From NCBI GenBank assembly GCA_964383585.1, contig CAYLHQ010000012.1, positions 36,714 to 100,713 on the forward strand: a stretch of 64,000 nt of DNA, written 5' to 3'. A program made the position numbers and the translations under genes. This document shows positions 13,634 to 43,161 of the stretch, piece after piece (position 1 is the first letter of the stretch; every line of letters starts with the position of its first letter). The notes under the pieces are model-generated. The model saw only the letters and a program-made list of their open reading frames with translations. It searched no databases and was not told where the DNA came from. The DNA comes from an uncultured Acidobacteriota bacterium. Its GTDB lineage: Bacteria > Acidobacteriota > Polarisedimenticolia > Polarisedimenticolales > DASRJG01.

Positions 13634-13663
13634 TCCGCCGACGATGGAGGAGGAGCCGACCCG

Positions 13664-15937
13664 ATGACGACACGGACCGAAACGTTCACCTACGACGACG
13701 CCATCGTCCGGAAGTTTCTGCTCGCCACCCTGGTCTGGGGGGCGGTGGGGATGCTGGTGGGCGTCCTGGTCGCCATCCAGCTCGCCTTCCCGGCGGCGAA
13801 CCTGGGTCTCCCTTGGACTTCCTTCGGACGTCTGAGGCCGCTCCACACGAACGCGGTGATCTTCGCGTTCGCCGGAAACGCGATGTTCACCGGCATGTAC
13901 TACTCGACCCAGCGCCTGCTCAAGACCCGGATGTTCTCGGACCTCCTGAGCTCGCTCCACTTCTGGGGCTGGCAGGCGATCATCGTCGCCGCCGCCGTGA
14001 CGCTTCCCTTGGGTTTCACGACCTCGAAGGAGTACGCCGAGCTCGAGTGGCCGATCGACGTCGCGATCGCCCTCGTCTGGGTGATCTTCGCCGTCAACTT
14101 CTTCGGAACCCTGGCCCGGCGCCGGGAGCGCCACATTTACGTCGCCATCTGGTTCTACATCGCCACCATCCTCACGATCGCGCTCCTCCACATCTTCAAC
14201 AGCCTCGAGGTCCCGGCGAGCCTCTGGAAGAGCTATTCGGTCTACGCGGGGGTCCAGGACGCGTTCATGCAGTGGTGGTACGGCCACAACGCGGTCGCGT
14301 TTTTCCTGACCACCCCCTTCCTCGGCCTCATGTACTACTTCATGCCGAAGGCCGCCGACCGCCCCGTCTTCTCCTACAAACTCTCGATCCTCCACTTCTG
14401 GTCGCTGATCTTCATCTACATCTGGGCGGGCCCCCACCACCTCCACTACACCGCCCTCCCCTCGTGGGCCGCGACGCTCGGGATGCTCTTCTCGCTGATG
14501 CTTTGGATGCCCTCGTGGGGCGGCATGGTGAACGGCCTGCTGACCCTCCGGGGCGCCTGGCACAAGGTCGCCGACGACGCGATCCTGAAGTTCTTCGTCG
14601 TGGCGATCACGTTCTACGGGATGTCGACCTTCGAGGGGCCGCTCCTTTCGATCAAGAGCGTCAACTCGCTCTCGCACTACACCGACTGGACGATCGCCCA
14701 CGTGCACGGCGGCGCGCTCGGCTGGGTCGGGTTCATGACCTTCGGCATGGCGTATTGGCTCATGCCGCGTCTCTTCCAGACGAAACTCTGGAGCAACCGT
14801 CTCATGGAGATCCACTTCTGGACCTCCACGGTCGGGATTCTCCTCTACGTGCTCCCGATCTACGCGGCCGGGCTGACGCAGGGGCTCATGTGGCGCGCGT
14901 TCGACGAGACGGGTCGCCTGGCCTACGGCGACTTCATCGAGACGACGATGCGCCTCATCCCGATGTACTGGTTCCGCGTGCTCGGTGGGGTCTTCTACCT
15001 CTCCGGCACGGTCCTGTGCATCGTGAACCTCGCGAAAACCTGGGGTTCCCGGCCTTCGCGGTACGAAGTGCCGGTCCACGAGGCCCCCGCCCTCTCCCCC
15101 GAGTACACGGACCCGTCGCCGGTTGCGTCCTACCTGCGGCGCGTCAAGGCCCCGGTCGCCGGTCTCGCCTACACGATCGAGCGGTTCGTCGACGCGACCT
15201 GGCACCGCCGCTGGGAGCGCCTCCCCCTCGTCTTCAGCGCGTGGGTAGCCGTCGCGGTCGTCGTGGCCTCGCTCTTCGAGATCATCCCGACCTTCCTGAT
15301 CCGGTCGAACGTGCCGACGATCGCCTCCGTGAAGCCGTACACCCCGCTCGAGGTCGTCGGGCGCGACCTCTACATCGCCGAGGGGTGCAACAACTGCCAC
15401 TCGCAGATGGTTCGGCCGATCCGCGCCGAAACGGTCCGCTACGGCGAGTACGGGAAGCCCGGGGAGTTCGTGTACGAGCACCCGTTCCTGTGGGGATCGC
15501 GCCGCATCGGACCCGACCTCCAGCGGGTCGGCGGGAAGTACCCGAACCTCTGGCACGTCCGCCACATGGAGAATCCGCGCTCGACCACGCCGCAGTCGAT
15601 CATGCCGCCGTATCCGTGGATGCTCACCGAGCGGATCGATTTCGAGGGGATCCCCGTGAAGCTGCGTGCGATGCGCACCGTCGGGGTTCCCTACACCGAG
15701 GCCGACGTCGCAGGAGCCGCGGCGTCGGCCCGCGAACAGGCGCGCGCGATCGCGGAGGACGTCGCCGCCCAGGGCGGCGCTCCGGGGCTCGAGGACAAGA
15801 AGATCGTCGCCTTGGTCGCCTACCTCCAGCGGCTCGGCCAAGACATCAAGGCCGTTCCACCCCCCGGCGCGCCGGCCGAAGCCGCACCCGCGATCGCCTC
15901 CGCCGGGAGCGGCGGGGGCTCCGGAGGGGACAGGTGA
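13664..15937 (+). CDS. ccoNO: cbb3-type cytochrome c oxidase, fused subunits I and II (CcoN-CcoO)
   Basis: A single 757-aa ORF. The CcoN part has 12+ TM helices and His ligands (HFWSLIFIYIWAGPHHLHY, HVHGGALGW). A ~50-aa linker follows, then CcoO with a TM anchor and heme motif CNNCHSQMVRP. Confidence 0.92.
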   Translation: MTTRTETFTYDDAIVRKFLLATLVWGAVGMLVGVLVAIQLAFPAANLGLPWTSFGRLRPLHTNAVIFAFAGNAMFTGMYYSTQRLLKTRMFSDLLSSLHFWGWQAIIVAAAVTLPLGFTTSKEYAELEWPIDVAIALVWVIFAVNFFGTLARRRERHIYVAIWFYIATILTIALLHIFNSLEVPASLWKSYSVYAGVQDAFMQWWYGHNAVAFFLTTPFLGLMYYFMPKAADRPVFSYKLSILHFWSLIFIYIWAGPHHLHYTALPSWAATLGMLFSLMLWMPSWGGMVNGLLTLRGAWHKVADDAILKFFVVAITFYGMSTFEGPLLSIKSVNSLSHYTDWTIAHVHGGALGWVGFMTFGMAYWLMPRLFQTKLWSNRLMEIHFWTSTVGILLYVLPIYAAGLTQGLMWRAFDETGRLAYGDFIETTMRLIPMYWFRVLGGVFYLSGTVLCIVNLAKTWGSRPSRYEVPVHEAPALSPEYTDPSPVASYLRRVKAPVAGLAYTIERFVDATWHRRWERLPLVFSAWVAVAVVVASLFEIIPTFLIRSNVPTIASVKPYTPLEVVGRDLYIAEGCNNCHSQMVRPIRAETVRYGEYGKPGEFVYEHPFLWGSRRIGPDLQRVGGKYPNLWHVRHMENPRSTTPQSIMPPYPWMLTERIDFEGIPVKLRAMRTVGVPYTEADVAGAAASAREQARAIAEDVAAQGGAPGLEDKKIVALVAYLQRLGQDIKAVPPPGAPAEAAPAIASAGSGGGSGGDR

Positions 15938-18673: not shown

Positions 18674-19380
18674 TCGCCCTCTGCGCGGCCGTGCTGGGGG
18701 CGAGCCTCGTCGGGAGCCTGCACTGCGCCGGAATGTGCGGCGGGCTCGTCGCGTTCGCCTCCGGGTCCGCGGGCGACGGCCCCCGCGGCGGGCGCGTGGC
18801 GCGCCATGGCGCTTACCACGGCGGGCGCCTCGCCGCGTACGCCCTCCTCGGGGCGGCGGCCGGGGCTCTCGGCGCCGCCCTCGATCTCGGCGGGAGGCTC
18901 GTCGGGGTGCAGCGCGCGGCGGCCCTCCTCGCGGGACTCTTCGTGGCGCTGTGGGGCGGCCATACCCTCCTGACGGCGCTCGGGCTGCGCCTGCCGCAGC
19001 CGAAGGCCCCGGCCCCGCTACGGCGCGCGCTCGGTCGCGGCCTCGACCGGTTCGCCGCGCGGCCACCCGCGGAACGTGCCCTCGCGGTGGGGCTCCTCTC
19101 GGCACTCCTTCCGTGCGGCTGGCTCTGGGCCTACGTGGCGGTCGCAGCGGGGACCGGCGGTGCCGCGGCCGGCGCCGCGGTGATGACGGTTTTCTGGGCG
19201 GGGACGGTGCCCGCGCTCGTGGCGGTCGGCGCGCTCGTACAGGCGGCGTCGGGCCGCCTGCGGCGCGTCGCTCCCGCCGTTTGCGCCGCAGTGCTCGTCG
19301 CCGTCGGCTTGACGACGGTCGTCCTGCGGGCGGCGGCCCCCCCCGCGCACGAGGAGCCCTCCTGCCATGCCGGTCGCTGA
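18658..19380 (+). CDS. integral membrane protein, DsbD_2/TauE-like (HCAGMCGG motif)
   Basis: GTG 18658. The product is multi-TM and Ala/Gly-rich, with LHCAGMCGGLV and LLPCGWLW motifs typical of the membrane protein family often found between ccoH and ccoI. Confidence 0.65.
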   Translation: MAGDLIALCAAVLGASLVGSLHCAGMCGGLVAFASGSAGDGPRGGRVARHGAYHGGRLAAYALLGAAAGALGAALDLGGRLVGVQRAAALLAGLFVALWGGHTLLTALGLRLPQPKAPAPLRRALGRGLDRFAARPPAERALAVGLLSALLPCGWLWAYVAVAAGTGGAAAGAAVMTVFWAGTVPALVAVGALVQAASGRLRRVAPAVCAAVLVAVGLTTVVLRAAAPPAHEEPSCHAGR

Positions 19381-21814
19381 GGCCGCTCCTCCTTCGCTCG
19401 CCTGCGTCCACTGCGGGCTCCCCGTGCCCCGCGCGCGCCGCCCCGCCGGAACCGCGGCGGAGGCGTTCTGCTGCGACGGGTGCGAAGCGGTCTACGGGGC
19501 GCTCCGCGCGCACGGCCTCGCCCGTTACTACGCTCTCCGCGAATCTTCGGGAGCGGCCGGCCGGCCGGCGCGGGTGACCGGTCGTTCGTTCGAGGAATTC
19601 GACGACCCTTCGTATGCGGCGCGCATGGTACGGGAACTCCCGGACGGCTCCGCGCGGACCGAATTCTTCCTCGAAGGCGTCCACTGTGCCGCGTGCGTGT
19701 GGCTCGTGGAGCGCCTTCCGGACCTCGATCCCGGTGTCCTCGAGGCGAGGCTCGACCTCCCCCGCTCTCGTGTGCGCGTCACCTGGGACCCCGAGCGCAG
19801 CCCCCTTTCCTCCGTCGCGCGGAACCTCGATCGTCTCGGGTACACCCCGCACCCGCTCCGCGGGGAAGCCGCGGAATCGGCCCGGCGCCGGGCGGAACGC
19901 TCGATGCTGATGCGCCTCGGGATCTCGGGGGCCTCGGCGGGGAACACGATGGCGATCGCCTTCGCGCTTTACGGAGGTCTCCTCCACGGGATGGAGCCCC
20001 CGTACGAAGCGCTGTTCCGCTGGACGAGCCTCGCGATCTCGATCCCCGCGCTGATCTGGGGCGGTGGCGTGTTCTTCCGCGGCGCCCTCGGTGCCCTGCG
20101 GGCGAGGACCCTCCACATGGACGTTCCGATCGCGCTCGGGATCGTCGCCGGCTTCGCCCACGGCGTCGCGAACACCGTCCGCGGCGAGGGTCCCGTCTAC
20201 TTCGAATCGGTGACGATGCTGATCTTCCTCCTCCTCGCGGGGCGCTGGATCCAGATGCGGCGGCAGCGCACCTCGGCCGATTCGGCGGAACTCCTCGCGG
20301 CGCTCTGCCCTTCCTCCGCCCGTCTGCTCGACGGCGGCGCGGCGCGGACGGTGCCGGCCGAGTCGCTCGTGCCGGGCATGGCGATCGAGGTACTCCCCGG
20401 CGACCTCTTTCCGGCGGACGGCACCGTGACGATCGGAAGCTCCACCGTCAACGTCGCCCTTCTGACCGGAGAATCGCGCCCCGTCGAGGTCGAACCCGGC
20501 TCCGCCGTCCACGCGGGAACGCTGAACCTCGCGTCGAGACTCGAGGTCGAAGTCGTCGCCGCAGGGGAGGAAACGCGGGTCGGGAAACTCATGCGGCTCG
20601 TGGAGGAGTTCGCATCGCGCCGCGCCCCGATCGTGCTCCTCGCGGACCGGATCTCCGGGATCTTCGTCGGCGCCGTCCTCCTCCTCGCCGCCGTCACCTT
20701 CGCCCTGTGGGCGTCGCGCGGGGTCTCGACGGCCCTCGACCACGCGATCGCGCTACTCATCGTGACCTGCCCGTGCGCGCTGGGGCTTTCCACCCCGCTC
20801 GCCACGACCCTCTCGATCGGTCAGGCGGCGCGTGCGGGGATCCTGGTGAAGGGAGGGGACGTCCTCGAGGCGCTGACGCGGCCGGGGCGCGTTTGGCTCG
20901 ACAAGACCGGCACGCTGACCGAAGGGCGTCTCCGGCTGCTCGAGCGGGAGGGTCCCGAAGAGGCCTGGCGCCTCGTCGCCGCCGCCGAGCGGCACTCGGG
21001 CCATCCGGCGGCGCGGGCGATCGTGGAGGCGTGCGGGGAACTCGACGCGCACGTACGGGTCCGCGAGACCCAGGGGGGCGGAATCGAGGGGACCGTCGAC
21101 GGCCGGGCGATCGTCGTCGGTTCGCCCGGCTTCGTCGCCGCGCGATGCGGCCCGCTCGACGAGGTCCGGTCTTCTCGTCTCGCGGAGTGGACCGCGCGCG
21201 CCCTGACGCCGGTCGTCGTCGCGGTCGACGGCCGCGTCGTCGGGGCGGCCGGGCTCGGGGATCCGATACGTCCCGACGCACCCCGTGCCGTCGAGCGGCT
21301 GCGCCGGTCGGGGTGGAAGGTCGCCATCCTCTCGGGGGACCACCGGGACGTCGTCGCTGCCGTCGCACGCGCCCTCGGGATCGATCCCGCGGACGCGCGC
21401 GGGGAGATCGGTCCGGAGCAGAAGTCGCGCATCGTGCGAGAGTCGGCCTCGGACGGGACGGTCGTGATGGTGGGGGACGGCGTGAACGACGCCGCCGCAC
21501 TCGCCGCCGCCCGTGTCGGGATCGCCGTGCACGGGGGGGCGGAGGCCGCCCTCGCCGCCGCCGACGTCTTCGTCACGCGAAGCGGGGTGGAGCCGCTTCT
21601 CGAGGTCTTCGACGGGGCGCGCCGGACGTTGCGCACCATTCGCTGGAACCTCACCTTCTCGCTGCTCTACAACGTCGTCGGAGCGGGGCTCGCCATGGCG
21701 GGACTCATCAACCCGATCGTCGCCGCCGTCCTGATGCCGCTGAGTTCGCTCACCGTCGTGGGGACGACGGCGGCGTCTCGGATGTTCCGGCCGTCCGGGG
21801 GGGGAGCGCCGTGA
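19367..21814 (+). CDS. ccoI: copper-translocating P1B-type ATPase (CcoI/FixI)
   Basis: N-terminal Cys motifs and an HMA-like GVHCAACV; CPC in TM6 (CPCALGLSTP); DKTGTLT; GDGVNDAAAL. Confidence 0.9.
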   Translation: MPVAEAAPPSLACVHCGLPVPRARRPAGTAAEAFCCDGCEAVYGALRAHGLARYYALRESSGAAGRPARVTGRSFEEFDDPSYAARMVRELPDGSARTEFFLEGVHCAACVWLVERLPDLDPGVLEARLDLPRSRVRVTWDPERSPLSSVARNLDRLGYTPHPLRGEAAESARRRAERSMLMRLGISGASAGNTMAIAFALYGGLLHGMEPPYEALFRWTSLAISIPALIWGGGVFFRGALGALRARTLHMDVPIALGIVAGFAHGVANTVRGEGPVYFESVTMLIFLLLAGRWIQMRRQRTSADSAELLAALCPSSARLLDGGAARTVPAESLVPGMAIEVLPGDLFPADGTVTIGSSTVNVALLTGESRPVEVEPGSAVHAGTLNLASRLEVEVVAAGEETRVGKLMRLVEEFASRRAPIVLLADRISGIFVGAVLLLAAVTFALWASRGVSTALDHAIALLIVTCPCALGLSTPLATTLSIGQAARAGILVKGGDVLEALTRPGRVWLDKTGTLTEGRLRLLEREGPEEAWRLVAAAERHSGHPAARAIVEACGELDAHVRVRETQGGGIEGTVDGRAIVVGSPGFVAARCGPLDEVRSSRLAEWTARALTPVVVAVDGRVVGAAGLGDPIRPDAPRAVERLRRSGWKVAILSGDHRDVVAAVARALGIDPADARGEIGPEQKSRIVRESASDGTVVMVGDGVNDAAALAAARVGIAVHGGAEAALAAADVFVTRSGVEPLLEVFDGARRTLRTIRWNLTFSLLYNVVGAGLAMAGLINPIVAAVLMPLSSLTVVGTTAASRMFRPSGGGAP

Positions 21815-24069: not shown

Positions 24070-26223
24070 ATGCGTCGACTCCTGTTTGCCGCGCTGCTCG
24101 TCGGGCTGACGGGAGCGGCGGCGGCGCAGACAACCGTGTACGTCTCCCCGACGGGGACCGACCCTGCCAACTGCGCGGTCTCGACGAACTGCCGCAGCAC
24201 GGGAACGGCCTGTCGGACGATCCAGTGCGCGATCGACTCGACCGTCGGCGGGGAGACGATCCGCGTCGCCCCCGGGACCTACAACGAGTGCGTGACCGCG
24301 TTCTTCGTGGACGGCGGGTCCGGGGCCCCGGTTCCGGCCGATCTCACGATCGTCGCCGAGGACTACGAGGTCAACCGCCGGTCGAACACGACGATACTCG
24401 ACGCGACCGGTCTCGATTGCTTCGTCGACATCGGCGGACAGATCGTGTCGCTCCCGGTGGTGGAACTGGGAGATCGGGCGGTGCTTCGCGGATTCACGGT
24501 CAAGGGGAACCAGGGAGGCGGAGGCGTCCGCGGATACGGCGCCGTTCAAATCACGAACAACGTGATCGAGGGGAACTCGGCCCTACGGGGGGGCGGGGTC
24601 TACGTTTATACGGGTTATTACGTCACCGACGTCGACGGCCAGACCGCGGTCAAGCAGAACGTCATCCAGAACAACTCCGCCGCCCTCGGGGGAGGGGTCA
24701 TGGTCCGCGGCATCGCGTTCTACGGGGCCGGCGGCACGGTGACCGTGGAGTCGAACACGATCGCCTCGAACACTGCGGAAGGCGTTGACGGCGGGTACGG
24801 CGGAGGGCTCTACGTTCTGACCGACTCGTACGACCCGGCCGACGTCTCGCGCGTGAGGATTACCAAGAACTTGATCGAGGGGAACAACGCGACCCTCGGC
24901 ACCTCGGGGGGCGTCGCGTACGGAGGCGGCCTGTACGTGTCGACGTACGGGTATCCCGCGTCGGGGAGCGAGGTCATCGACGTCGACGACAACGTGATCC
25001 GAAACAACTTCGCGGAGGGATACGGCGGCGGCGTCATCGCGCAGGTGCTCGGAACGACCGGTCCCGCGTCGAACGACGATCCCGGTTACGAGATCCGGGT
25101 GCGGAACAACTCCCTTACGGCCAACGTCGCCGACGGCGGAGGAGGCGGCGTCTACGTTTACGCCCAGCACGCCGATCTCGATTCGACCGCGAAGACGACC
25201 CTCGCCGTCGAGGGAAACGCGATCGCCGGGAACTCCCACACCGGCGTCATCCAGTCCCCCTTCGTTCCGGGCGGAGGCGGGGGGGTCTACGCCGAGGTCA
25301 TCCAGGCGAGAAACCTGACGCCGAACGTCGACATCGAGTTCGAGAACAACACGATCCAAACGAACACGACGGCCGCGGTCGGCGGCGGGGCGAGCCTCTA
25401 CGTCCTCGCCGACTCCCAGCCGGACGGGGGCGCGTCTCTCGCCACCGACGCGAGGGTGCGATTCGAGAACAACCTGGTGACGACGAACACCGCGGCCACG
25501 CCCGGTCTGACCGGGGAGGGTGGCGGCGTGTATACCCTACTCGAGTCGAGAGGTCTCGCGACCGCAACCGCGACGCTCGAATTCAACACGGTCGCCGCGA
25601 ACTCCGTCGATCCGGGAGGCGCCGGCCTCTACGTCGACGCGTTCACCTATCCGGACACCTCGCTCAACCTCGGATCGACCGCGACCGAGGTCTCGAACTC
25701 GATCCTCTACGTCAACGAAGATCTCGAGTTCGAAACCGGCTTCGTCGGCGGAACCGACCAGCGATCGCTCACGGTCCGGTACAACGACGTCTACGACGTC
25801 GCCGACTCGCTGTACGGGCCGAACGTCGGGAATCGGACGGGACAGTCCGGCAATCGGAGCTTCGATCCCGAGCTGAGCGCCTTCTACGTCCCCCTGCTCT
25901 GTTCGGCCTCGATCGACGCCGGGGACCCGCTCGAGGGAACCCGCGACTCGGTCGGCCGCCTCACCTCGGAGCCGCAACCCAACGGCGGGATCGTGAACCT
26001 CGGCCACCTCGGCAACACGCCGAACGCGCCGCGGACCTTTCCCGACGTGAGCGGGGACGGGATCGTGGACGGCGTCGACGTCCTGCGCATCGCGTCGTCG
26101 TTCGCGTCGATCTCGTCGCAGCCGACCCGATTCAATCCCGCCGCCGACCGAGACCGTGACGGCGACGTGGACGGAGACGATCTCTCGTACGTGGCCGCCT
26201 TCTACGGCCAGGCATGTCCGTGA
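24070..26223 (+). CDS. secreted right-handed beta-helix repeat protein with a C-terminal dockerin-like module
   Basis: Signal peptide MRRLLFAALLVGLTGAAAAQ. Many GGG(V/L)Y...N-x-I/V-x-x-N repeats are characteristic of parallel beta-helix (PbH1) proteins. The C-terminus carries two Ca-binding-like loops (DVSGDGIVDGVDVLRIASSF ... DRDRDGDVDGDDLSYVAAFYG). Confidence 0.8.
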   Translation: MRRLLFAALLVGLTGAAAAQTTVYVSPTGTDPANCAVSTNCRSTGTACRTIQCAIDSTVGGETIRVAPGTYNECVTAFFVDGGSGAPVPADLTIVAEDYEVNRRSNTTILDATGLDCFVDIGGQIVSLPVVELGDRAVLRGFTVKGNQGGGGVRGYGAVQITNNVIEGNSALRGGGVYVYTGYYVTDVDGQTAVKQNVIQNNSAALGGGVMVRGIAFYGAGGTVTVESNTIASNTAEGVDGGYGGGLYVLTDSYDPADVSRVRITKNLIEGNNATLGTSGGVAYGGGLYVSTYGYPASGSEVIDVDDNVIRNNFAEGYGGGVIAQVLGTTGPASNDDPGYEIRVRNNSLTANVADGGGGGVYVYAQHADLDSTAKTTLAVEGNAIAGNSHTGVIQSPFVPGGGGGVYAEVIQARNLTPNVDIEFENNTIQTNTTAAVGGGASLYVLADSQPDGGASLATDARVRFENNLVTTNTAATPGLTGEGGGVYTLLESRGLATATATLEFNTVAANSVDPGGAGLYVDAFTYPDTSLNLGSTATEVSNSILYVNEDLEFETGFVGGTDQRSLTVRYNDVYDVADSLYGPNVGNRTGQSGNRSFDPELSAFYVPLLCSASIDAGDPLEGTRDSVGRLTSEPQPNGGIVNLGHLGNTPNAPRTFPDVSGDGIVDGVDVLRIASSFASISSQPTRFNPAADRDRDGDVDGDDLSYVAAFYGQACP

Positions 26224-26288
26224 AGGTCGGCCAGGAGACGACGATGAACTGCACGGCAACCGCACGGACGGAACGGAAGGGAGGCCGC

Positions 26289-26891
26289 ATGGGCCGGTGG
26301 GCTTTGGCCACGATCGCGATTCTGGCGCTCGGAACGACCGCATGCGGCGGTGGGGGGGACGACGACCCCGCTCCTTCGGGCCCCGTCGCATCGTTCACCC
26401 CCGGAACCGCGACCGCCGGCTCGATCGCGCAGCTCGCGGGGAGCTCGAGCGGCACGAGCTTCACGATCCGGATCTCCGCGACCGACATCCCCGACTTCTT
26501 CGGGGCTGCGTTCCGGATCCAAATCGATCCCGACTTCGTCGCGTACCAGGGATTCACCTCGACGGGGTCGTTCCTCCGGGACGGTGGCGTGACCAACCTC
26601 GACTTCCGCGTCGACGCCACGACCGTTCCGGGCCAGGTCATCGTGAACGCCACCCGCGTTCAAAACGCCAGCGGCACGATCCCGGGAGTGAACGTCGTCG
26701 GGACCCGCGAGTTGATCTCGCTCACCTTCCGGGTGCGGACGTTCTTCAACGCGACCTCCGACGCGAACGCGAACGGGATCCCGGACGGGAGCCTTGAATT
26801 CGTCGACCCGCGTGAGGTCTGCGACTCGGACCAGCCCGTCTGCACCCCGATCTTTGTCACGTGGTCGGCCGGGTCGGTCCGGGGCAGCTGA
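26289..26891 (+). CDS. lipoprotein with a cohesin-like domain
   Basis: ATG 26289 follows AAGGGAGG. The lipobox is LALGTTAC. The mature part (FTIRISATDIPDFFGAAFRIQIDPDFVAYQGF...GTRELISLTFRV) resembles a cohesin beta-sandwich. Confidence 0.6.
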   Translation: MGRWALATIAILALGTTACGGGGDDDPAPSGPVASFTPGTATAGSIAQLAGSSSGTSFTIRISATDIPDFFGAAFRIQIDPDFVAYQGFTSTGSFLRDGGVTNLDFRVDATTVPGQVIVNATRVQNASGTIPGVNVVGTRELISLTFRVRTFFNATSDANANGIPDGSLEFVDPREVCDSDQPVCTPIFVTWSAGSVRGS

Positions 26892-26892
26892 T

Positions 26893-29800
26893 TCACGGGA
26901 TCGTCGCCGTCCCCCCCGCCTCGATGACGACGGTCCCGCGCGGATTCCCGTCGAGCTCGACGGCGTAGACCCCCGGCGGCAGGTACCGGAGGAGCCACGC
27001 CGCTCCCAGCTCGGGGGTCTCGATCCGCTGGATCGCCCCGCCCGAGGTCCGGGAGAGGACGCCCCCCCAGTCGAGCCCCGCCGCGTCCCGGACCACCGGC
27101 GTCCCCTTCGACCCCTGGGGCCTCGCCAGGAGGAGTTGCCCGCAACGGACCGCGGTGACCGTGACTTCGAGGTCTCCGTCCTCCGGGACGACGAGCTCGG
27201 TCCTCCCGATCCCGAAGCCGTCGACCCGGAAGATCACCTCCGCCGGACCGGGTTCGAAGGGGCATTCCTGGACCCCCGAGACGAAGCCGTAGCTGTGGCG
27301 GTTTTGCCCTCCCCCCGCGACGCACTCGAGCGTCCCGGGAAGTCCGGGTGGGTCGCTCTTCAGGGTGACGCGCACGCGCGGGCCCGGAGTCGGCGTCAAC
27401 TCGACCGAGAACGCGTTCGATCCTTCCCCGATCTCGACCCGCCCCTCGTGCGTTTCGTAACGCTTCGCTCCGACCTGAATCGCGTGTGGACCTGGACGGG
27501 AGAGGAAGATCCGAGCGCGTCCCGAAGCGTCCGTGCTCCCGAACCCGCACCCTCCGTCGCTCACCGAAACGTCGATGTCGGGCTCGAACAGGTTCCCCCA
27601 CGAGCGGCGACTCATCGACGCCATGCACTTCGCCCCCTCGGGCGTCAAGAAGAGCGACGCGTTGGGAACGGGCCCTCCCGACTTCCTGTCCCGGACGAGG
27701 ACGTCGACGAGAACGGTCGAAACGGCGAGGTCGACTCGGACGAGCCCCTCCTGCGGGAGGTCGACCTGCTTGTCCGCCCGACCCTCCGGGCCGATCGCGG
27801 AGAACATGTAGGTCCCCGGTTTCTTGTTCTCGAGACGCCACCGACCGGCCGCATCGGTCTCGACGCCTCCGTCGGACGCCATTCCCCCGTCCCGAAGCTC
27901 GGAGACGGCCACGATGTAATTCGCGAGCCCCCGTCCGTCCTTCGAAACGGTGCCCTCGACCGCAGGCCCGTCCCGCAACTCGACGACCGTCGTACGCCCC
28001 GCAACGATCTCCACGCCCTTCTCGGCTCCCGGGGGAAGCGAGGCCGCCCCCTTTCCCGCCGCGAGGTCGGAGAAGAGAACGCTCGTCCGGCCGGCGACGG
28101 CGGCGGAGTGCCCGACCCCGCGACCGTCCCGAACCGACACCCAGCGGGTGGGAGGCAGGTCCACAGGGAACCTCGCCTCGACCGCACCCGCGGGTGCGAG
28201 CGTCAGGACGATCTCGGAATCTCCCCTGGCCAGGACATCGGGCTCGACGGCCGGCCCGAAACCCGGGGCGGTCGCGACGAGGGACTGCCGCGGCCCCGGC
28301 TCGGCGGCGACGGTGAACTTCCCATCCGCGCCCGTCATCCCGACGGCGATGGCGCGCTCGAGCGAGACGGAACCGGAGTCGCGGACCAGTCTCACGGTCG
28401 CCCCCGCCTTGGGCACCCCCGACGGATCGAGCACCGTTCCGCGGAGCCCGTGAGCGCGCTCGAGCGTCAGGACGATCCCGGAACGGGTTTCTCCGGCCTC
28501 GACCGTCACCGCGAGCGGCTCTCCTGTCTGGTACCCCTGTGCGCTCGCGATCAGGCCGAGCCTTCCCGCTTCGGCGTCGGAAATCCGGAATGTCCCCTCC
28601 GGCGTCGCGACCGTCCGTGAAGCGAGCGCCCCCGATCCGGCGAGAGCGAACACCTCGGCGCCGGGAACCGGTTCCCCGGACTCCCCCTCGACGAGGCCCT
28701 CGAGGATCACGCCCCGATCGAGCTCGATGCGCACCGAACCGACCGAGAGGTCGAGATCGTCCCGGGTCGCGGTGCGATACCCCTCGGCCGAGACCTCGAG
28801 GCGGAGCCGGCCGGTTTCCGGGAACCCGGCGAGTTCCGCGCGGCCCGAGGAGTCGGTGAATCCCTCGACGTTGAAGACGAGCCCCGCAGAGCCGCTGCCG
28901 AGCACGCGCGCCCCTTCGACCGGGGCTCCCGAGCGGTCGACGACGTCGACGACGACCGCGGCCCCCCGCTCCACGCGGAGCACGCCCAGGTCCTCCGTCG
29001 TTCCCGCCTCCGGGGCATCCCCGCGCAGGCGCAGGGGAAGCCCCGGCTTCGGGCGGACGTAGAGATCCCACTCCGAGGAAAGGAAGGGCCCCAGCCGAAG
29101 CGAACCGTCCCCCGAGCAGGGCGAGTTCAGGGTCGCCCCGGGAAGGAGCCTCGAAAGCCACGCCGATTCCCGGTCCCGTACCGTGAGCGCCCCGCGGCAA
29201 CCGACCGGCCGGTCGTCCTCGTCGACGAGGCGAGCGACGAGGCGCACCGGCCGTGCGGGACGGAGGACGACCGTCTCCTCGGGGGGCTTCGGAAACGAAC
29301 CCGCCGCGACGCCGAGCGGATCGTCCCACCCTCCCGCAGCGAGGAGGACCGGTCCTTCGGCGTCGGCGGGGAAGGAAAACGTCCCGTCGGCCGAGGTTTC
29401 GCCCTCGAGCGGTGCCGAAGGGCCGCACGTCCACGCGCCGATCGGATCGACACCGGACGGAACTCGTTGCGCGGGCGGAGGGTCCTCGGGGTACTTCCCC
29501 CAGATCCGCACGGCGATCGATTCGACCGGAAGCCCCTCGGCATCGACAACCTTCCCCTGGACCCTCCGCGGCGGACGCCATGCCGCCGACACCGCGTGCA
29601 ATCCGTGCCCGAGGGGGCCGAGGTCGGCCCGGCAGGTCCATCCGTCCTTCACGCGGACGAGGTCGATCCGGTAGCGTCCCGCCGGGACTGGCCCGAGCGA
29701 AACGCGAGGGAGCTCCTCGTTCTTCGTCGGGGGGGCGAGCGGCTCGCGCGCGGCGAGGGCGTTTCCTCCCGGCCCGTACAGCCGCGCCTCCATGCCGTCG

Positions 29801-30129
29801 GCCGAAGCGAGGCCGCGGACCGGCCCCTCGATCCGCGCCGCCGCCGTCACCCGGCAGTCGACCGAAGGTCCCGCGACCTCCGCCTCTCCCGGAAGGAAGC
29901 CGTCGGCCCAGCATCGGACCTTCCTGCACGCCGCGAGGACCGGAATGCGCCCGTCCGCCCCGACGGTCGCGCCGGGGCCCGCCGGGTCGGCGCACGAAAC
30001 GCCGGCGAGGGCGAGGGGCTTTTCCCCCGCGGGGTCGAGGACGCGCACCGCAATGCGGTCGGCCTGCTGCGCGGATACGGAGGGCGTCAGGAGGAAGACG
30101 AGCAGAAGGACGGAACGGTCGCGGCGCAT
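26893..30129 (-). CDS. large secreted protein built of carboxypeptidase-regulatory-like (CarboxypepD_reg/Ig-like) repeats
   Basis: 1078 aa with signal peptide MRRDRSVLLLVFLLTPSVSAQQ. It contains about ten repeats of the G-x-V-x-D-x-x-G-x-P-x-x-G-A-x-V type (for example GTVLDPSGVPKAGATVRLV). Confidence 0.75.
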   Translation of the reverse strand: MRRDRSVLLLVFLLTPSVSAQQADRIAVRVLDPAGEKPLALAGVSCADPAGPGATVGADGRIPVLAACRKVRCWADGFLPGEAEVAGPSVDCRVTAAARIEGPVRGLASADGMEARLYGPGGNALAAREPLAPPTKNEELPRVSLGPVPAGRYRIDLVRVKDGWTCRADLGPLGHGLHAVSAAWRPPRRVQGKVVDAEGLPVESIAVRIWGKYPEDPPPAQRVPSGVDPIGAWTCGPSAPLEGETSADGTFSFPADAEGPVLLAAGGWDDPLGVAAGSFPKPPEETVVLRPARPVRLVARLVDEDDRPVGCRGALTVRDRESAWLSRLLPGATLNSPCSGDGSLRLGPFLSSEWDLYVRPKPGLPLRLRGDAPEAGTTEDLGVLRVERGAAVVVDVVDRSGAPVEGARVLGSGSAGLVFNVEGFTDSSGRAELAGFPETGRLRLEVSAEGYRTATRDDLDLSVGSVRIELDRGVILEGLVEGESGEPVPGAEVFALAGSGALASRTVATPEGTFRISDAEAGRLGLIASAQGYQTGEPLAVTVEAGETRSGIVLTLERAHGLRGTVLDPSGVPKAGATVRLVRDSGSVSLERAIAVGMTGADGKFTVAAEPGPRQSLVATAPGFGPAVEPDVLARGDSEIVLTLAPAGAVEARFPVDLPPTRWVSVRDGRGVGHSAAVAGRTSVLFSDLAAGKGAASLPPGAEKGVEIVAGRTTVVELRDGPAVEGTVSKDGRGLANYIVAVSELRDGGMASDGGVETDAAGRWRLENKKPGTYMFSAIGPEGRADKQVDLPQEGLVRVDLAVSTVLVDVLVRDRKSGGPVPNASLFLTPEGAKCMASMSRRSWGNLFEPDIDVSVSDGGCGFGSTDASGRARIFLSRPGPHAIQVGAKRYETHEGRVEIGEGSNAFSVELTPTPGPRVRVTLKSDPPGLPGTLECVAGGGQNRHSYGFVSGVQECPFEPGPAEVIFRVDGFGIGRTELVVPEDGDLEVTVTAVRCGQLLLARPQGSKGTPVVRDAAGLDWGGVLSRTSGGAIQRIETPELGAAWLLRYLPPGVYAVELDGNPRGTVVIEAGGTATIP

Positions 30130-30234: not shown

Positions 30235-32889
30235 CTACGGAGCGGGGTGGAGCGCCTCCCACCACTCCGGCCGATCTCGGAGCCAACGGTCGAACCAGGC
30301 GACGATCGAGCGCGACCAGACGATTCGCTTCGCGTGGTCGAGGATGAGGTGGTCCTGCCCTTCGATTTCCAGGAACTCCGACGGCGCCCCCACGAGGCGG
30401 AGTGCGGCGAAGAACTGGTCGCTCTCTCCGACGGGGACGTTCGTGTCGGAGGCACCGTGCGTGAGGAGCACCGGCGTCTTCACCTTGTCGGCGTGATAGA
30501 GCGGGCTCCGGTCGACGTAGATGTCGCGCCGGTTCCAGGGGAACGAATCGGCCGTCGCCCCGGCGCTGTACGGGACTCCCCAGTACCCCTCGCCCCAGTA
30601 CGACGCGAGTTGGGAGATCCCCGCGTGCGCGACGGCCGCGGCGAAGCGCTCGCTCTTGGTCACGAGGGTCATCGTCATGAAGCCGCCGTACGACGCGCCG
30701 ATGCAGCCGACGCGCTTGCCGTCGACCGCGGGATGCGCCGCGAGGAACTTCTCGGTCCCCTCGAGGATCTCGGCCGCCGTGACCTCCCCCCAGTCGTTCA
30801 CGTGGACGGCGGAGGCTTCCTGGCCGTACCCAGTGGCGCCGGTCGGCTGGAGAACGTAGACGACGTATCCGTTCGCGGCCCACCACTCCTTCGGGTAACG
30901 GCCGCCGAAGTCGCGCTCGACGGGGGTCGTCCCCCCGTAGTAGTAGACGATCGCGGGGTAGGCGCCTCGCCGCGAGGCGTCGTAGCCCGGCGGGAAGTAG
31001 ACCCGTCCGTCGACTTCACGCCCCTTCGAGGTCGTGAAGCGGAAGGGTTCGACTCCTCCGGTGCGGACCGTGTCGAACCAGCTTCCCGAAGGCTTCGCGA
31101 GGAGCCGCGACTCTCCCGACGCGAGATCGACGAGACGGAGCGTCTCCGGCTGCCACGGCGAGGTTCCGGTCACGGCCGCCACGGAGGCGTTCTCTGCGAA
31201 GGCCCAGTCCTCGACAACGTCGACCCCCGCTTCGAGCATCTCGATCCGGCGAGTCTTCGGGTCGTAGCGGAAGAGCCGTTCGAAGTCGCGGTCGGCGGCG
31301 CGGAAGTAGACGTTCCCGTCCCGCCGGCTCCAGATCGCCCCCGTCACCGCAGGGTCGAATTCACGCGTGATCGCCTCGACCGCGTTCGCGGCCGGGTCCC
31401 ACAGATAGAGCTGGCCGTCGTACTCGTTCGGGGTGACCCCGTCGGGCACGTTCTTTCCGGCGTCTCCGAAGGTCGACGGGCTTCCCAGGACGAGGAGTCT
31501 CTCGCCGCCCGGTGACCAGGCGACGCCCGTGAGCCAGCCCGACTCGAGGAGCTTCTTCGCCTCTCCGGAGGCGAGGGTCAGCTCCCACAACTCCTGCACC
31601 GTGTAGGGGCGCTCCTTCAGGTTCTCCTTCTGACGCAGGAAGGCGATCTTCGCGCCGTCCGGAGAGAAGACCGGACCCCCGACCGAGAGCATTCCCGCCG
31701 TCAGCCGGCGCCGCCCTCCGTCCGAGACGCGCACGAGATGAAGGACTTGCCGGTCGCGCCACCCCTCCTGGCGGTCGGCGACGCCGCGATGGAGCTTCAC
31801 GCCGCGCTTGTCCTTCTCCTCCTTGATCGTCGCGGCGTAGACGATCGAGTTCCCCGCGGGGGACCAGACGTACCCGGCGAAGTTCTCGATCCGCTCGAGG
31901 AGCGGTCGCGTCTCCCCCGTTTCGAGATTCGAAAGCCACAGCGTCGAGAACGACTTCCCGTCCTTCGAGGCCTTGCGGTCCTGGGTCACGTAGGAGAGGG
32001 TCCGTCCCTGGGGCGACCAGCCGACGCCGGTCATCTCGAAGCCGCCGCGCCAACTCTGCAGGAGCCCCCCGTCTGCGGCGGCGCGCAGCTCGATCCACGT
32101 CTCGGAATCGTCGGTTCCCGGAAGGACCCGCGAAAGGGTCGTCGCGACCTGCGTCCCGTCGGGGGAGACCGCGAGCGAGGTGATCTGCGGGGGATCGAGG
32201 ATGTCGTGGATCGTGAGGTCGCGCTCGGGGGCAACGTCGCTCGAAAGACCGTCGAGACCGACCTTCGCGTCCTTCGCCTCGAGGACCGCGCCCACGTTCC
32301 ATTCCCCTTCCCGCGCGGGATCGAGGATCGTGCGGATCAAGAGGAGATGGGTTCCGGTGGGGATCTGGATCTTCCCCGAGACCTTCTCCGGCTCCTTCCC
32401 CTCCACCGCCTTCGCGGTCCCACCGGAGGCCACCGGCTCGCCGTCGAGCCACGCCCGCCTCGGATGACCCCCTTCGACCGTGAGGGTCATCTCGCGGAAC
32501 CGGTCGGTCCGGATCCGCACGGCGAGCCAGGCGACTTCGGGGACATTCCGCTTTTCGCCCGATGCGGACGCGATCGCGACACGTCCGTCGCTCCCCGCCT
32601 TCGCCGCCCTCCAACCCCCTTTTCCGTCGACCGGATCGAGCGCGCGCACGTCGAGGAGGACGTCGTCGAGCATCTCGTTCAGGCCGTACGCTCCCGGCTT
32701 CTCTTCCGCGAAGGCGGGGAGCGGGACCGGGTCGGGCCCGAGCACGAGCCACTCGGTCACGGAAATCGTCGGCTTGGCGGCGTTGTCTCCCATCGTCGCC
32801 CCCCCGGGCGTCTGCGCAGCCTCGACGGCCGGAGAGACCAGGATCAGAACCAGAGAAAGGCAAATGGAGCGGATCTTGGTGTTTGTCAT
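30235..32889 (-). CDS. S9-family serine peptidase (prolyl oligopeptidase/acylaminoacyl-peptidase type) with N-terminal extra domain and beta-propeller
   Basis: The start at MTNTKIRSICLSLVLILVSPAVEA was chosen for its signal peptide. WD/TolB-like propeller repeats are present. The C-terminal alpha/beta hydrolase domain carries GASYGGFMT (GxSxGG), with Asp/His downstream. Confidence 0.85.
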   Translation of the reverse strand: MTNTKIRSICLSLVLILVSPAVEAAQTPGGATMGDNAAKPTISVTEWLVLGPDPVPLPAFAEEKPGAYGLNEMLDDVLLDVRALDPVDGKGGWRAAKAGSDGRVAIASASGEKRNVPEVAWLAVRIRTDRFREMTLTVEGGHPRRAWLDGEPVASGGTAKAVEGKEPEKVSGKIQIPTGTHLLLIRTILDPAREGEWNVGAVLEAKDAKVGLDGLSSDVAPERDLTIHDILDPPQITSLAVSPDGTQVATTLSRVLPGTDDSETWIELRAAADGGLLQSWRGGFEMTGVGWSPQGRTLSYVTQDRKASKDGKSFSTLWLSNLETGETRPLLERIENFAGYVWSPAGNSIVYAATIKEEKDKRGVKLHRGVADRQEGWRDRQVLHLVRVSDGGRRRLTAGMLSVGGPVFSPDGAKIAFLRQKENLKERPYTVQELWELTLASGEAKKLLESGWLTGVAWSPGGERLLVLGSPSTFGDAGKNVPDGVTPNEYDGQLYLWDPAANAVEAITREFDPAVTGAIWSRRDGNVYFRAADRDFERLFRYDPKTRRIEMLEAGVDVVEDWAFAENASVAAVTGTSPWQPETLRLVDLASGESRLLAKPSGSWFDTVRTGGVEPFRFTTSKGREVDGRVYFPPGYDASRRGAYPAIVYYYGGTTPVERDFGGRYPKEWWAANGYVVYVLQPTGATGYGQEASAVHVNDWGEVTAAEILEGTEKFLAAHPAVDGKRVGCIGASYGGFMTMTLVTKSERFAAAVAHAGISQLASYWGEGYWGVPYSAGATADSFPWNRRDIYVDRSPLYHADKVKTPVLLTHGASDTNVPVGESDQFFAALRLVGAPSEFLEIEGQDHLILDHAKRIVWSRSIVAWFDRWLRDRPEWWEALHPAP

Positions 32890-32895
32890 GGGGCC

Positions 32896-33198
32896 ATGAA
32901 GATAGCACCGGGGGTTTCCGCGCGGAAACCGAGTTCGGGCAACCTGCGAGCGTCGAATTTTCGGAAGCACGACGTCACGTTCGAGGAGGCGATGAGTGCC
33001 TTCGGAGACCCACTGTCCGTCACCGTTGAAGACCCCGATCACGGGGACGGAGAGCCTCGTTTTCTCCTTCTGGGACTATCTTACGCAGGACGTCTGCTGG
33101 TGGTCTCTCATACGGAGCGCGGCGAATCGGTTCGCATCATCAACGCGCGGCAGGCCAGTCGCAGAGAGAGGACGATCTATGAAGAAGCGGAGGAATGA
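32896..33198 (+). CDS. BrnT-like (DUF497) ribonuclease toxin
   Basis: ...NFRKHDVTFEEAMSAFGDPLSVTVEDPDHGDGEPRFLLLGLSYAGRLLVVSHTERGESVRIINARQASRRERTIYEE follows the BrnT pattern (KHG-V-x-F-x-EA ... E-x-R ... RIISAR-x-A). The N-terminus is atypical. Confidence 0.7.
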   Translation: MKIAPGVSARKPSSGNLRASNFRKHDVTFEEAMSAFGDPLSVTVEDPDHGDGEPRFLLLGLSYAGRLLVVSHTERGESVRIINARQASRRERTIYEEAEE

Positions 33199-33424
33199 GG
33201 TTCGAGAACCAGACATGCGGGCCGAGTACGACTTCCGCGGCGGAGTCCGCGGGAAGTACGCAGCTCGCTTCGCCGCCGGGACCAACATCGTCGTGCTCGA
33301 CCCGGACGTCGCAGCCCGCTTCCCCGATTCACGAACCGTCAACGAAGCGCTGCGCGCGCTGGTCGCTGTCGCCGATCGCAGGGTGAGTCGGCGGTCGAAA
33401 CCACGCGCGAGTTCAAAGCGGTGA
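33179..33424 (+). CDS. putative antitoxin (BrnA-position protein, 81 aa)
   Basis: It overlaps the BrnT-like gene by 20 nt. The motif MRAEYDFRGGVRGKYAARF...VVLDPDVAARFPDSRTVNEALRAL is common in small antitoxin-like proteins paired with BrnT-type toxins (recalled from memory). Confidence 0.55.
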   Translation: MKKRRNEVREPDMRAEYDFRGGVRGKYAARFAAGTNIVVLDPDVAARFPDSRTVNEALRALVAVADRRVSRRSKPRASSKR

Positions 33425-33936: not shown

Positions 33937-34003
33937 AAGCGACTCCCGTCCGCCCCTCTCGGCGGGTGAGGTGTACGATGTCGGCGCTTCCGGAGGAGTC
34001 CGA

Positions 34004-34393
34004 GTGAATCGATGGCCGGACTGGTGGGCGCAGGCCGAGCGGGATCTGGCACACGCTCGCCATGCCCTCGAGGACGCCGACCATGAGTGGGCGTGCTTCG
34101 CGGCGCAACAGGGGGCGGAGAAGGCCCTCAAGTCGCTCGTCCTCGCCCTCGGGGGCGAGCCCTGGGGTCATTCGGTCCTCGCGCTCGTGGAGGCCCTACC
34201 CGAGTCCGTCGGGCGGACCGAAGCGACGACGGACGCCGCGAGCCGACTCGACAAGCACTACATCCCGACCCGCTATCCGAACGGTTTCGACGCGGGCTTC
34301 CCCGGGAAGCTCTACACCCGCGGCGAGGCCGTCGCGGCGATCGAGGACGGGGAGCACATCCTTGCGTTCTGCAGGCGCCATCTACCTCGATAG
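34004..34393 (+). CDS. HEPN domain protein
   Basis: GTG 34004 follows GGAGGAG. The sequence WWAQAERDLAHARHALEDADHEWACFAAQQGAEKALKSL...LDKHYIPTRYPNGF is typical of HEPN proteins from HEPN/MNT pairs. Confidence 0.75.
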   Translation: MNRWPDWWAQAERDLAHARHALEDADHEWACFAAQQGAEKALKSLVLALGGEPWGHSVLALVEALPESVGRTEATTDAASRLDKHYIPTRYPNGFDAGFPGKLYTRGEAVAAIEDGEHILAFCRRHLPR

Positions 34394-35741: not shown

Positions 35742-35805
35742 CGATCGATATGATACGACAAATTGATTGGATCGATGATGCGAACGGCGGTACGGTACGG
35801 GCACC

Positions 35806-42611: not shown

Positions 42612-42687
42612 CAATGTGAACACGCATCCCCCTTCCCGCATCGCGCGGGCGTTTCCTCTGGACCGCGTCTTGTGGATGGGTCGGAGA

Positions 42688-43161
42688 TCAGGAAGGTGGG
42701 GCGCGGGGAGATCGGTGGAGGGCGAGCGGGACGCCACCCGGCCGAAACAGAACCGTCGGAGTTGCAATCGAGAGTGGGCGTTCCGGAGGCGTGGCCCCCG
42801 TGTCCTCGAAGCCGGATTCTCCCGGGGGCGCCGCGCCCGGAAGGAAGCGTGCGGACTTGCGGGGGTCGTCCCGGTCTGCGGGGGGCGACCAGGGATCGGG
42901 CCTCCCCTCGTCGAAGCCGCCGCGATCGGCGTGAGTGTGACCGGCGCCTCCGTGCTCATGGAACCCGAGATGGAGGTGGTCGTGGACGACGTGCGCGGAG
43001 CCGTTCCGGTGATGGTGGGGACGATCTTCACCCGTTGCACCCAGCCAGAAGAGACAAACGAACCCGAGCAAACCCGAGACGCTCCGCTCGGGGAAAAAAT
43101 GGGGACTGGCACCTTTTCCGAAGACCCTCCCGGAAAAGGTGCCAGTCCCCATTTCTCTCAT
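42688..43161 (-). CDS. hypothetical His-rich protein (start uncertain)
   Basis: The ORF has high GC3 by eye. It encodes a hydrophobic segment (LLGFVCLFWLGATG) followed by HHHRNGSAHVVHDHLHLGFHEHGGAGHTH. ATG 43161 overlaps the upstream stop (ATGA) but would put the 43099-43152 palindrome inside the coding region. The next in-frame start is TTG 43071. Confidence 0.35.
   Translation of the reverse strand: MREMGTGTFSGRVFGKGASPHFFPERSVSGLLGFVCLFWLGATGEDRPHHHRNGSAHVVHDHLHLGFHEHGGAGHTHADRGGFDEGRPDPWSPPADRDDPRKSARFLPGAAPPGESGFEDTGATPPERPLSIATPTVLFRPGGVPLALHRSPRAPPS
43099..43152. repeat. perfect palindrome of the GGGGACTGGCACCTTTTCC family
   Basis: ATGGGGACTGGCACCTTTTCCG (43099-43120) pairs perfectly with CGGAAAAGGTGCCAGTCCCCAT (43131-43152). 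It starts 6 nt downstream of the sulfatase-like gene stop. Confidence 0.75.

Follow-up and report, generated by a model that had tools for sequence, protein, structure and literature searches.

In a 64,000-nucleotide stretch of DNA from an uncultured, soil-type Acidobacteriota bacterium (GenBank assembly GCA_964383585.1, contig CAYLHQ010000012.1; hereafter the window), two adjacent genes, A and B, were identified that likely represent a dedicated two-gene anchoring cassette of the cohesin-dockerin type. Gene A encodes a secreted beta-helix protein with a C-terminal dockerin module, and gene B, which follows on the same strand, encodes a small lipoprotein whose mature part is predicted to be a single cohesin. 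According to our analysis, the dockerin of A would bind the cohesin of B, and the pair, which recurs in dozens of environmental genomes, is probably a snap-on anchor with no connection to cellulose breakdown. An earlier note, made from the sequence alone, had proposed a minimal two-gene tethering module, and its factual elements (open reading frames, lipobox, neighbours and a 1-nt gap behind B) were all correct. The strict adjacency of the two genes in other genomes, together with role-swapped and re-anchored variants, is the strongest in silico support for such a module. Feature coordinates are given in Table 1.

Dockerin and cohesin modules of the gene pair

The C-terminal end of A (...FPDVSGDGIVDGVDVLRIASSFASISSQPTRFNPAADRDRDGDVDGDDLSYVAAFYGQACP) carries two loops of 12 residues each, D659-D670 and D693-D704, with D/S/D/D/D at EF-hand positions 1, 3, 5, 9 and 12 in both. 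They are spaced 34 residues apart, within the range of about 33-35 typical of the duplicated dockerin segment and in agreement with the dockerin spacing read earlier from the sequence. In the AlphaFold2 model, one helix stands behind each loop (residues 668-676 and 702-715), this part of the model being less confident (predicted local distance difference test score, pLDDT, 50-74). D663, G668, D670, D693 and G702 are invariant across the gene A family. The best sequence match of A in the PDB is the dockerin of Bacteroides cellulosolvens Cel48 (2y3n_B, 1.7e-4). Dockerin_1 was matched by 18 of 22 orthologues (E <= 0.01, best 1.7e-7), and a profile built from 14 orthologous tails retrieved eight PDB sequences, all eight of them dockerins (best 2y3n_B, 2.5e-9). 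This family-level sequence evidence is unambiguous and assigns the tail of the 717-residue protein to the dockerin family, which bears out the earlier proposal.

The N-terminus of B (MGRWALATIAILALGTTAC followed by GGGGDDDPAPSGP) has the form of a lipoprotein signal peptide. Its LGTTAC motif fits the PROSITE-type lipobox pattern, and Cys19 is invariant in all 25 homologues, which upholds the lipobox that had been read from the sequence. Behind the lipobox lies a tether rich in Gly, Asp and Pro (residues 20-33). If translation began at an alternative in-frame ATG at 26244, B would be 215 amino acids long, as are several homologues. A search of 1.84 billion representative proteins returned 1213 members of the B family at E <= 1e-3 and no fewer than 513 representative clusters when the limit was set at E <= 1e-10; the best 150 members are mostly 180-215 amino acids long. 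A strict lipobox is present in 96 of 120 small representatives of the family. The others, apart from one entry truncated at its 5' end, have near-lipoboxes of the PSC/PAC/PGC type, in most cases with a Gly-rich stretch behind them.

Profile and structure evidence identifies the mature part of B as a single cohesin, as the earlier note had supposed. The Pfam Cohesin family was matched by 17 of 25 homologues (E <= 0.1, best 1.1e-16), and relatives at the loci L012, L008 and L059 (described below) scored 60, 29 and 47 bits, all above the gathering cut-off. The AlphaFold2 model of B, computed from the homologue alignment, reached a pLDDT of 86 and a predicted TM-score (pTM) of 0.79, with values mostly above 90 in the sandwich and below 60 up to about residue 30. 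When this model was compared with the PDB by Foldseek, the best 50 matches were all cohesins (probability 1.00, target-normalised TM-score up to 0.74), led by the non-cellulosomal cohesin 2xdh of Archaeoglobus fulgidus (1.3e-5). The list spans type I, type II and Clostridium perfringens cohesins and includes 3ul4 and 4dh2. Conserved in the family are the motifs FFGAAF, SFLRDGG and ATRxQN as well as the pair C178-C185. The B-family profile, searched against PDB sequences, gave only a match at E = 0.14, to the Ruminococcus flavefaciens ScaC cohesin. An antibody light-chain identity, suggested for B by PDB sequence matches through an 'SGSGSGTxFTLTIS'-like strand, was rejected as a weak and generic resemblance of Ig strands.

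Conservation of the cassette

On each contig that was looked up for distant homologues of A or B, the gene for a dockerin-tailed beta-helix protein is followed at once by a cohesin gene of about 200 codons. The spacer between them measures 12-60 nt at other loci, with a 4-nt overlap on one contig. A cohesin-motif scan of one genome per species returned metagenome-assembled genomes (MAGs) of Acidobacteriota, Terriglobia and Gemmatimonadota, and purpose-built hidden Markov models (HMMs) of dockerin and cohesin placed a dockerin gene directly upstream of the cohesin wherever the contig allowed. The order A-then-B was found in the window, L001-L003, L005, L006 (with two cassettes), L007, L009, L011 and L012, and it was also found on two contigs known from gene tables.

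A metagenome scan by the dockerin motif alone, independent of any cohesin motif, gave 46 loci. In 40 of them, a B-family cohesin reading frame starts on the same strand 12-60 nt downstream of the dockerin gene. Of the remaining six, five end at a contig edge within 132 nt of the dockerin and one is a weak partial match; linkage is thus 40 out of 40 among metagenome loci with a full dockerin match and enough downstream DNA. When the cohesin genes of the collected loci were grouped at 90, 70 and 50% identity, they formed 42, 33 and 16 clusters, respectively, which indicates that the linkage does not stem from one lineage sampled repeatedly. All loci with a full match of this dockerin subtype have it on a protein that aligns to the A-family beta-helix. 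An HMM scan of the 64-kb window detected no further dockerin or cohesin beyond A and B. A protein search with the dockerin profile returned mostly contig-end fragments of 43-115 amino acids, the only informative match being that in Massilia, and a cluster look-up for family names yielded nothing beyond 'hypothetical protein', all database copies being unnamed or so labelled.

Variants in other genomes

At locus L008 the roles of the two partners are swapped. An 87-residue protein, made up solely of a signal peptide with a lipobox-like VTGTAC and a dockerin (Dockerin_1, 38.3 bits), is a probable lipoprotein. The next gene encodes a secreted protein of 892 residues in which an N-terminal cohesin (29.4 bits) is combined with an LCAT-like lipase domain and TSP3 repeats. 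In Massilia varians (L059, AP026966.1), a reprolysin-like metalloprotease is followed in frame by a dockerin (40.1 bits), the two being separated by one stop codon that could reflect a pseudogene, a sequencing error or read-through. The gene behind it encodes 193 amino acids; its product has a signal peptide and combines a cohesin (46.9 bits) with a PEP-CTERM anchor (31.2 bits), so that the cohesin has an exosortase signal in place of the lipid.

Other variants differ in the number of cohesins. Locus L012 encodes, in this order, an 823-residue beta-helix-dockerin protein, a 512-residue lipoprotein with about three cohesins and a 201-residue lipoprotein with a single cohesin, a trio that amounts to a mini-scaffoldin form of the cassette. 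At L006, one Terriglobia MAG has two divergent cassettes next to each other, and the anchor on the minus strand has two cohesins. Most differences between the two L006 dockerins fall in helix 1 (VDGVDVLRIATAF vs VDGKDLLWVTTAF), a possible sign of diverged specificity. Locus L010, from a low-GC marine bin, encodes one protein with a dockerin, a cohesin and a type IX secretion system (T9SS) tail and, next to it, a four-cohesin protein; this is a different, more scaffoldin-like non-cellulosomal arrangement. In every variant one partner has an anchor of the membrane or surface type and the other carries a bulky extracytoplasmic domain, as would be predicted if the function of the pair is anchoring. 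The ratio of anchor to cargo would be 1:1, or 2-3:1 where B has several cohesins.

The beta-helix cargo

The body of A is built from about ten copies of the unit [VF]xxNx[IV]xxNxAxxxGGG[VL]Y. It matches Pfam Beta_helix (PF13229) with 36.7 bits, above the gathering cut-off of 25.9, and AlphaFold2 models it as a long right-handed beta-helix (pLDDT 82.6, pTM 0.82). Homologues of A are 695-863 amino acids long and identical in architecture; they match Pel9A-like_beta_helix (PF22842) and DUF1565 (PF07602) over the N-terminal cap and first coils. According to NCBIfam, the N-terminal part of 9 of the 22 homologues, and only this part, resembles Leptospira LIC10774-type surface proteins. Pfam scans of A and its homologues revealed no glycoside hydrolase or carbohydrate-binding module (CBM), consistent with the earlier remark that no glycoside hydrolase domain was recognisable in the cargo.

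At the positions of residues 21-599 that are at least 80% conserved, we counted 40 Gly, 20 Asn and only scattered Asp or Glu, and no Lys, Arg or His; the invariant helix residues are nearly all Asn or Gly. The repeats recall those of chlamydial Pmp proteins, a resemblance only, since Chlam_PMP (PF02415) was not matched by A in Pfam and by just one of 22 homologues, at E = 0.0046. Foldseek returned generic beta-helix neighbours for the A model (TM-scores <= 0.48), among them GH120 XylC (1.7e-4), the PL9 lyase Pel9A (1ru4; E = 3e-4, TM 0.26/0.43) and pertactin (1dab, 6e-3), besides lyases, epimerases and phage tailspikes. The assignment of a function to A from these matches was rejected, because the neighbours are generic beta-helices that include enzymes and adhesins alike. 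The Asn/Gly-rich, Pmp-like repeat and the apparent lack of a conserved acid/base cluster lead us to lean, by a small degree, towards a structural or adhesive role of A, and a polysaccharide-active enzyme appears rather unlikely.

Gene A encodes eight Cys residues (35, 41, 48, 53, 74, 117, 611 and 716), which fit an extracytoplasmic, oxidising location. In the family, C74 and C117 are invariant and C611 and C716 are conserved, the latter within the terminal 'CP'. A disulfide between Cys611 and the penultimate Cys716 is conceivable; it would tie the C-terminus of the dockerin back to the linker, much as the 'clasp' does in some dockerins. Proteins of the dockerin-only and Massilia types likewise terminate in Cys-Asn or Cys-Pro.

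Covariation between dockerin and cohesin

Mutual information was calculated for 33 non-identical pairs of A tail and B, with pre-dockerin beta-helix columns of the same phylogeny as control. The top pair links cohesin residue 123, within the ATRxQN motif, to residue 675 of the dockerin, or position 17 of repeat 1 in our own numbering from the first loop Asp. In type I dockerins, position 17 is a canonical recognition position. Residues 675 and 123 are Ala and Arg in 20 pairs, Ser and Leu, Ile or Phe in 12, and Thr and Arg in one, so that a simple rule fits 32 of the 33. On a neighbour-joining (NJ) tree of the beta-helix part only, the double switch falls in two separate clades. We regard the co-variation of these two residues as suggestive, not significant.

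Proposed mechanism and alternative explanations

We posit that A and B are both exported by the Sec pathway, as their signal peptides suggest, and that B is lipidated at Cys19 and sits on a membrane, most likely the outer membrane, with a flexible tether of about 14 residues. The dockerin of A would fold around two Ca2+ ions and plug into the single cohesin of B. Domain identity and strict gene linkage suggest that the beta-helix would in this way be held non-covalently on the cell envelope, where it may serve as an adhesin or structural envelope protein rather than as a polysaccharide-cleaving enzyme. For the complex to be displayed on the cell surface, we see about even chances.

Several points weigh against this proposal. 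The binding of A to B is predicted from domain identity and gene linkage, and no route across the outer membrane is evident for either protein. The structural matches of A, at TM-scores of at most 0.48, mix enzymes with adhesins. Covariation between dockerin and cohesin is not above that of the beta-helix control (99th percentile 0.296 vs 0.277), and the two apparent coincident switches at residues 675 and 123 depend on an unsupported NJ tree. The single sequences also score low in Pfam: A reaches 22.3 bits with Dockerin_1 (PF00404; E = 1.5e-4), the gathering cut-off being 22.9, and the match spans positions 3-52 of the 57 in the profile; B reaches 16.9 bits with Cohesin (PF00963; E = 7e-3), where 24.1 would be needed, and only positions 10-55 of 139 are covered. 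In the Pfam check suggested in the earlier note, both window proteins taken singly thus stayed below the gathering cut-offs, whereas the homology to dockerins and cohesins held at the level of the families.

These sub-threshold scores, along with the spurious antibody light-chain matches that B alone gives among PDB sequences, would suit an explanation without any docking. In this reading, A gains no more than calcium-dependent stability from its EF-hand pair, and B, co-transcribed by coincidence, is an Ig-like lipoprotein with a function of its own or assists as a chaperone or in export. We hold this to be highly improbable: profile and structure evidence places the modules in the dockerin and cohesin families, and the near-absolute linkage, the role swap at L008 and the forms with several cohesins are hard to explain without binding. 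Improbable, to a lesser degree, is a reduced cellulosome-like system in which A would be a displayed lyase or hydrolase and B would be shared by other dockerin enzymes. The matches of homologues to Pel9A-like_beta_helix and DUF1565 and the GH120 XylC and PL9 Pel9A leads from Foldseek point in that direction, but the 64-kb window holds one dockerin and one cohesin, this dockerin subtype is always found on an A-family beta-helix at loci with a full match, and a glycoside hydrolase or CBM domain was not found. The conserved helix residues, being Gly and Asn with scattered Asp and Glu and no Lys, Arg or His, also speak against it.

If A and B do bind, the complex may nevertheless be periplasmic, B being a lipoprotein of the inner or outer membrane that faces the periplasm and keeps the beta-helix inside. 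The phylum is diderm, both proteins have only Sec or lipoprotein signals, A lacks a recognisable T9SS C-terminal domain, PEP-CTERM or autotransporter barrel, and no secretion-system genes were found nearby in the window. Related cassettes, however, have surface-type anchors, namely PEP-CTERM in Massilia and a T9SS tail at L010, and large beta-helices of the Pmp or pertactin type are, as a rule, found on the cell surface. Neither argument is decisive, and we judge the periplasmic location unlikely, though well worth keeping in mind. The anchoring of A through B, on whichever face of the envelope, is the explanation that we prefer.

Relation to known cohesin-dockerin systems

A cellulosome is defined by a scaffoldin with at least two cohesins and by glycoside hydrolases fused to dockerins (PMC13487519). 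The A-B system is not a cellulosome, as one cohesin and one dockerin are all that the window contains, and no glycoside hydrolase or CBM was found in it. Its working principle would be that of cohesin-dockerin anchoring; it is functionally closest to OlpA and OlpC of Clostridium thermocellum and closest by sequence and structure to non-cellulosomal cohesins such as 2xdh of A. fulgidus. In the type I OlpA/OlpC systems (3ul4, 4dh2), as proposed for A-B, one cohesin on the envelope receives a dockerin-tailed partner directly and no scaffoldin intervenes. OlpA and OlpC are, however, anchored by S-layer homology domains to a monoderm wall and receive many dockerin-bearing glycoside hydrolases, whereas B would be held by an N-terminal lipid in a diderm and has a single, always adjacent beta-helix partner in which no glycoside hydrolase domain was detected.

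Cohesin and dockerin modules outside cellulosomes are a recognised class, found mostly on non-catalytic parent proteins (PMC13487519; survey by Peer et al., 2009, FEMS Microbiol Lett 291:1, as cited there and in PMC10066038). A-B resembles this class, to which 2xdh, the best structural match of B, belongs, in that its modules occur outside any cellulosome. That literature catalogues scattered modules, whereas A-B is a fixed cassette. A cassette of lipoprotein-cohesin and beta-helix-dockerin conserved across Acidobacteriota and Gemmatimonadota was not found described in the literature searched.

In Chlorobium chlorochromatii, a cohesin-dockerin contact between Cag_2037 and Cag_2038 has been proposed from AlphaFold 3 models to hold a secreted beta-helix-containing protein on the cell (bioRxiv 10.64898/2026.03.19.712371). 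Like A and B, the two are adjoining genes of a diderm with a cohesin and a complementary C-terminal dockerin. They differ in that the cohesin is on a giant RTX cargo secreted by a type I secretion system, the dockerin is on a BIg-repeat filament and there is no lipoprotein; their nearest parallel is the swapped L008 locus, not the window pair. The cohesin-dockerin modules of the C. perfringens toxin complex (2jh2, 2o4e, 2vo8, 2w1n) are likewise non-cellulosomal, pair secreted proteins and are structural neighbours of B, but what they join in this Gram-positive pathogen is one glycoside-hydrolase toxin to the next, not a toxin to a membrane anchor. Chlamydial Pmp and pertactin adhesins share with A the regular [FV]xxN...GGG[VL]Y repeats, and pertactin is among its Foldseek matches; A is unlike them in lacking an autotransporter barrel and a Chlam_PMP match, and the likeness stays a resemblance.

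Genomic context

Among genomes, the closest match (90% identity) is the MAG of an uncultured Acidobacteriota bacterium. The window encodes a TonB-dependent receptor, which indicates a diderm envelope. The backbone begins with tsaD, an SPFH protein, a fabI-like reductase, crp, fused ccoNO, ccoP and ccoG and continues with a Cu-type P-ATPase, lepA, A, B, an insertion and fused purSL. The insertion comprises genes for a CarboxypepD_reg protein, an S9 peptidase, a BrnT-type toxin, a GNAT protein, a HEPN protein and a LysR regulator. Part of this backbone is shared by L001, with an adh_short_C2 reductase, tsaD, lepA, an unrelated gene, A, B, purS and an AIRS-domain (purL-type) gene. The shared lepA-purSL backbone puts the cassette in a vertically inherited housekeeping region and not in a mobile island.

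The CarboxypepD_reg gene is convergent to B, 1 nt separating its end from the B stop codon, and no terminator-like site was found around the A-B and B-CarboxypepD_reg junctions. Its product is secreted, with at least five such domains and Big_1-like stretches and without a TonB barrel; it shows a weak match (1.1e-6) to the model of the anammox S-layer glycoprotein Kustd1514. The earlier note had suggested that this protein and the S9 peptidase may belong to the same extracellular machinery as A and B. We rejected the CarboxypepD_reg protein as a partner of the cassette, since it has no dockerin or cohesin and, in a synteny set of the window and 59 related loci (L001-L059), is confined to the window and its two close relatives L003 and L042. 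The suggestion also lacks support for the S9 peptidase, a convergent neighbour of B in only about a third of the loci. It lies downstream of B in ten places (window, L003-L007, L011, L028, L041 and L056) and is missing from many other loci with enough flank. Pfam and HMM searches found no dockerin or cohesin in either protein. The upstream neighbours differ at L011, where murD takes the place of lepA. The recurrence of the peptidase may be plain synteny or a functional link to the cassette, the latter being possible but unsupported.

Other features of the window were recorded in passing. CcoN and CcoO of a cbb3-type oxidase are fused in one reading frame, with ccoP, ccoG and the gene of a CcoI-like P-type ATPase behind it. 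PurS and PurL also appear fused in a stop-to-stop frame with PurS near the N-terminus (Pfam), while at L001 the PurS-domain and AIRS-domain genes are called separately. The BrnT-type toxin gene overlaps a small reading frame, possibly an antitoxin, and a HEPN-domain protein is encoded nearby, all three being small, toxin-antitoxin-like genes of the inserted segment. Rfam and tRNA scans of the window were empty.

Table 1. Features of the window and of related loci (positions in the window unless a locus is named).
Feature	Position	Strand	Basis
Gene A, secreted right-handed beta-helix protein with C-terminal dockerin, 717 aa (putative cargo)	24070-26223	+	Open reading frame (ORF), Pfam, AlphaFold2
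Gene A Sec-type signal peptide, MRRLLFAALLVGLTGAAAA followed by QTT	24070-24126	+	Sequence reading; AlphaFold2 confidence low for residues 1-19
Gene A beta-helix body, residues ~22-600, about ten repeats	24133-25869	+	AlphaFold2 strand pattern
Dockerin module, residues 657-717, conserved terminal Cys-Pro	26038-26220	+	Pfam, PDB matches, family profile
Dockerin Ca loops 1 and 2	26044-26079, 26146-26181	+	Sequence reading
A-B spacer, 65 nt, Shine-Dalgarno-like GGAAGGGAGG	26224-26288	+	No terminator; probable operon junction
Gene B, 200-aa lipoprotein with one cohesin (putative anchor)	26289-26891	+	ORF, Pfam, homologues, AlphaFold2, Foldseek
Gene B signal peptide and lipobox LGTTAC; predicted lipidated Cys19 at 26343-26345	26289-26345	+	Cys19 conservation
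Gene B cohesin beta-sandwich, residues ~33-199	26385-26885	+	AlphaFold2, Foldseek, Pfam matches of homologues
CarboxypepD_reg protein, 1078 aa, five CarboxypepD_reg stretches	26893-30129	-	ORF, Pfam
S9 peptidase, signal peptide, beta-propeller	30235-33042	-	ORF, Pfam
Fused CcoNO, 767-aa ORF	13634-15937	+	COX1 and FixO domains
CcoI-like P-type ATPase	19367-21814		
BrnT-type toxin	32905-33198	+	81.6 bits
Small ORF overlapping the BrnT gene	33179-33424	+	No Pfam match
HEPN-domain protein	33950-34393	+	
Apparent PurS-PurL fusion, 1011-aa frame	35779-38814	+	Pfam
TonB-dependent receptor	40539-43157		
L006, two cassettes	L006:19-3230; L006:3047-6477	-; +	
L008 dockerin-only protein	L008:5736-5999	+	
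L008 cohesin-lipase-like protein	L008:6001-8679	+	
L010 dockerin-cohesin-T9SS protein and adjoining four-cohesin protein	L010:807-6905	+	
L012 beta-helix-dockerin protein and two cohesin lipoproteins	L012:318-4941	+	
L059 metalloprotease and dockerin	L059:3565-6291	+	
L059 cohesin with PEP-CTERM anchor	L059:6360-6941	+	

Significance

To our knowledge, non-cellulosomal cohesins and dockerins have been catalogued for more than a decade with almost no functional assignments. The A-B cassette offers a minimal test case, with one plug and one socket, in a major and poorly understood soil phylum. We tentatively put forward, as a broader idea that may well prove wrong, that a single-cohesin anchor with an adjacent dockerin-tailed protein is a widespread, unrecognised means of fastening proteins non-covalently to the diderm envelope, a 'choice-of-anchor by adaptor' with co-evolving plug and socket. 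The type of anchor would vary, being a lipid in Acidobacteriota and Gemmatimonadota and PEP-CTERM in Massilia, and the cargo of the Acidobacteriota cassette would be a core, vertically inherited, Pmp-like adhesin or coat protein. If the predicted binding is true, the cassette would provide new orthogonal cohesin-dockerin pairs for display engineering in Gram-negative hosts, and it would show how Acidobacteriota fix a conserved, large beta-helix protein to their envelope.

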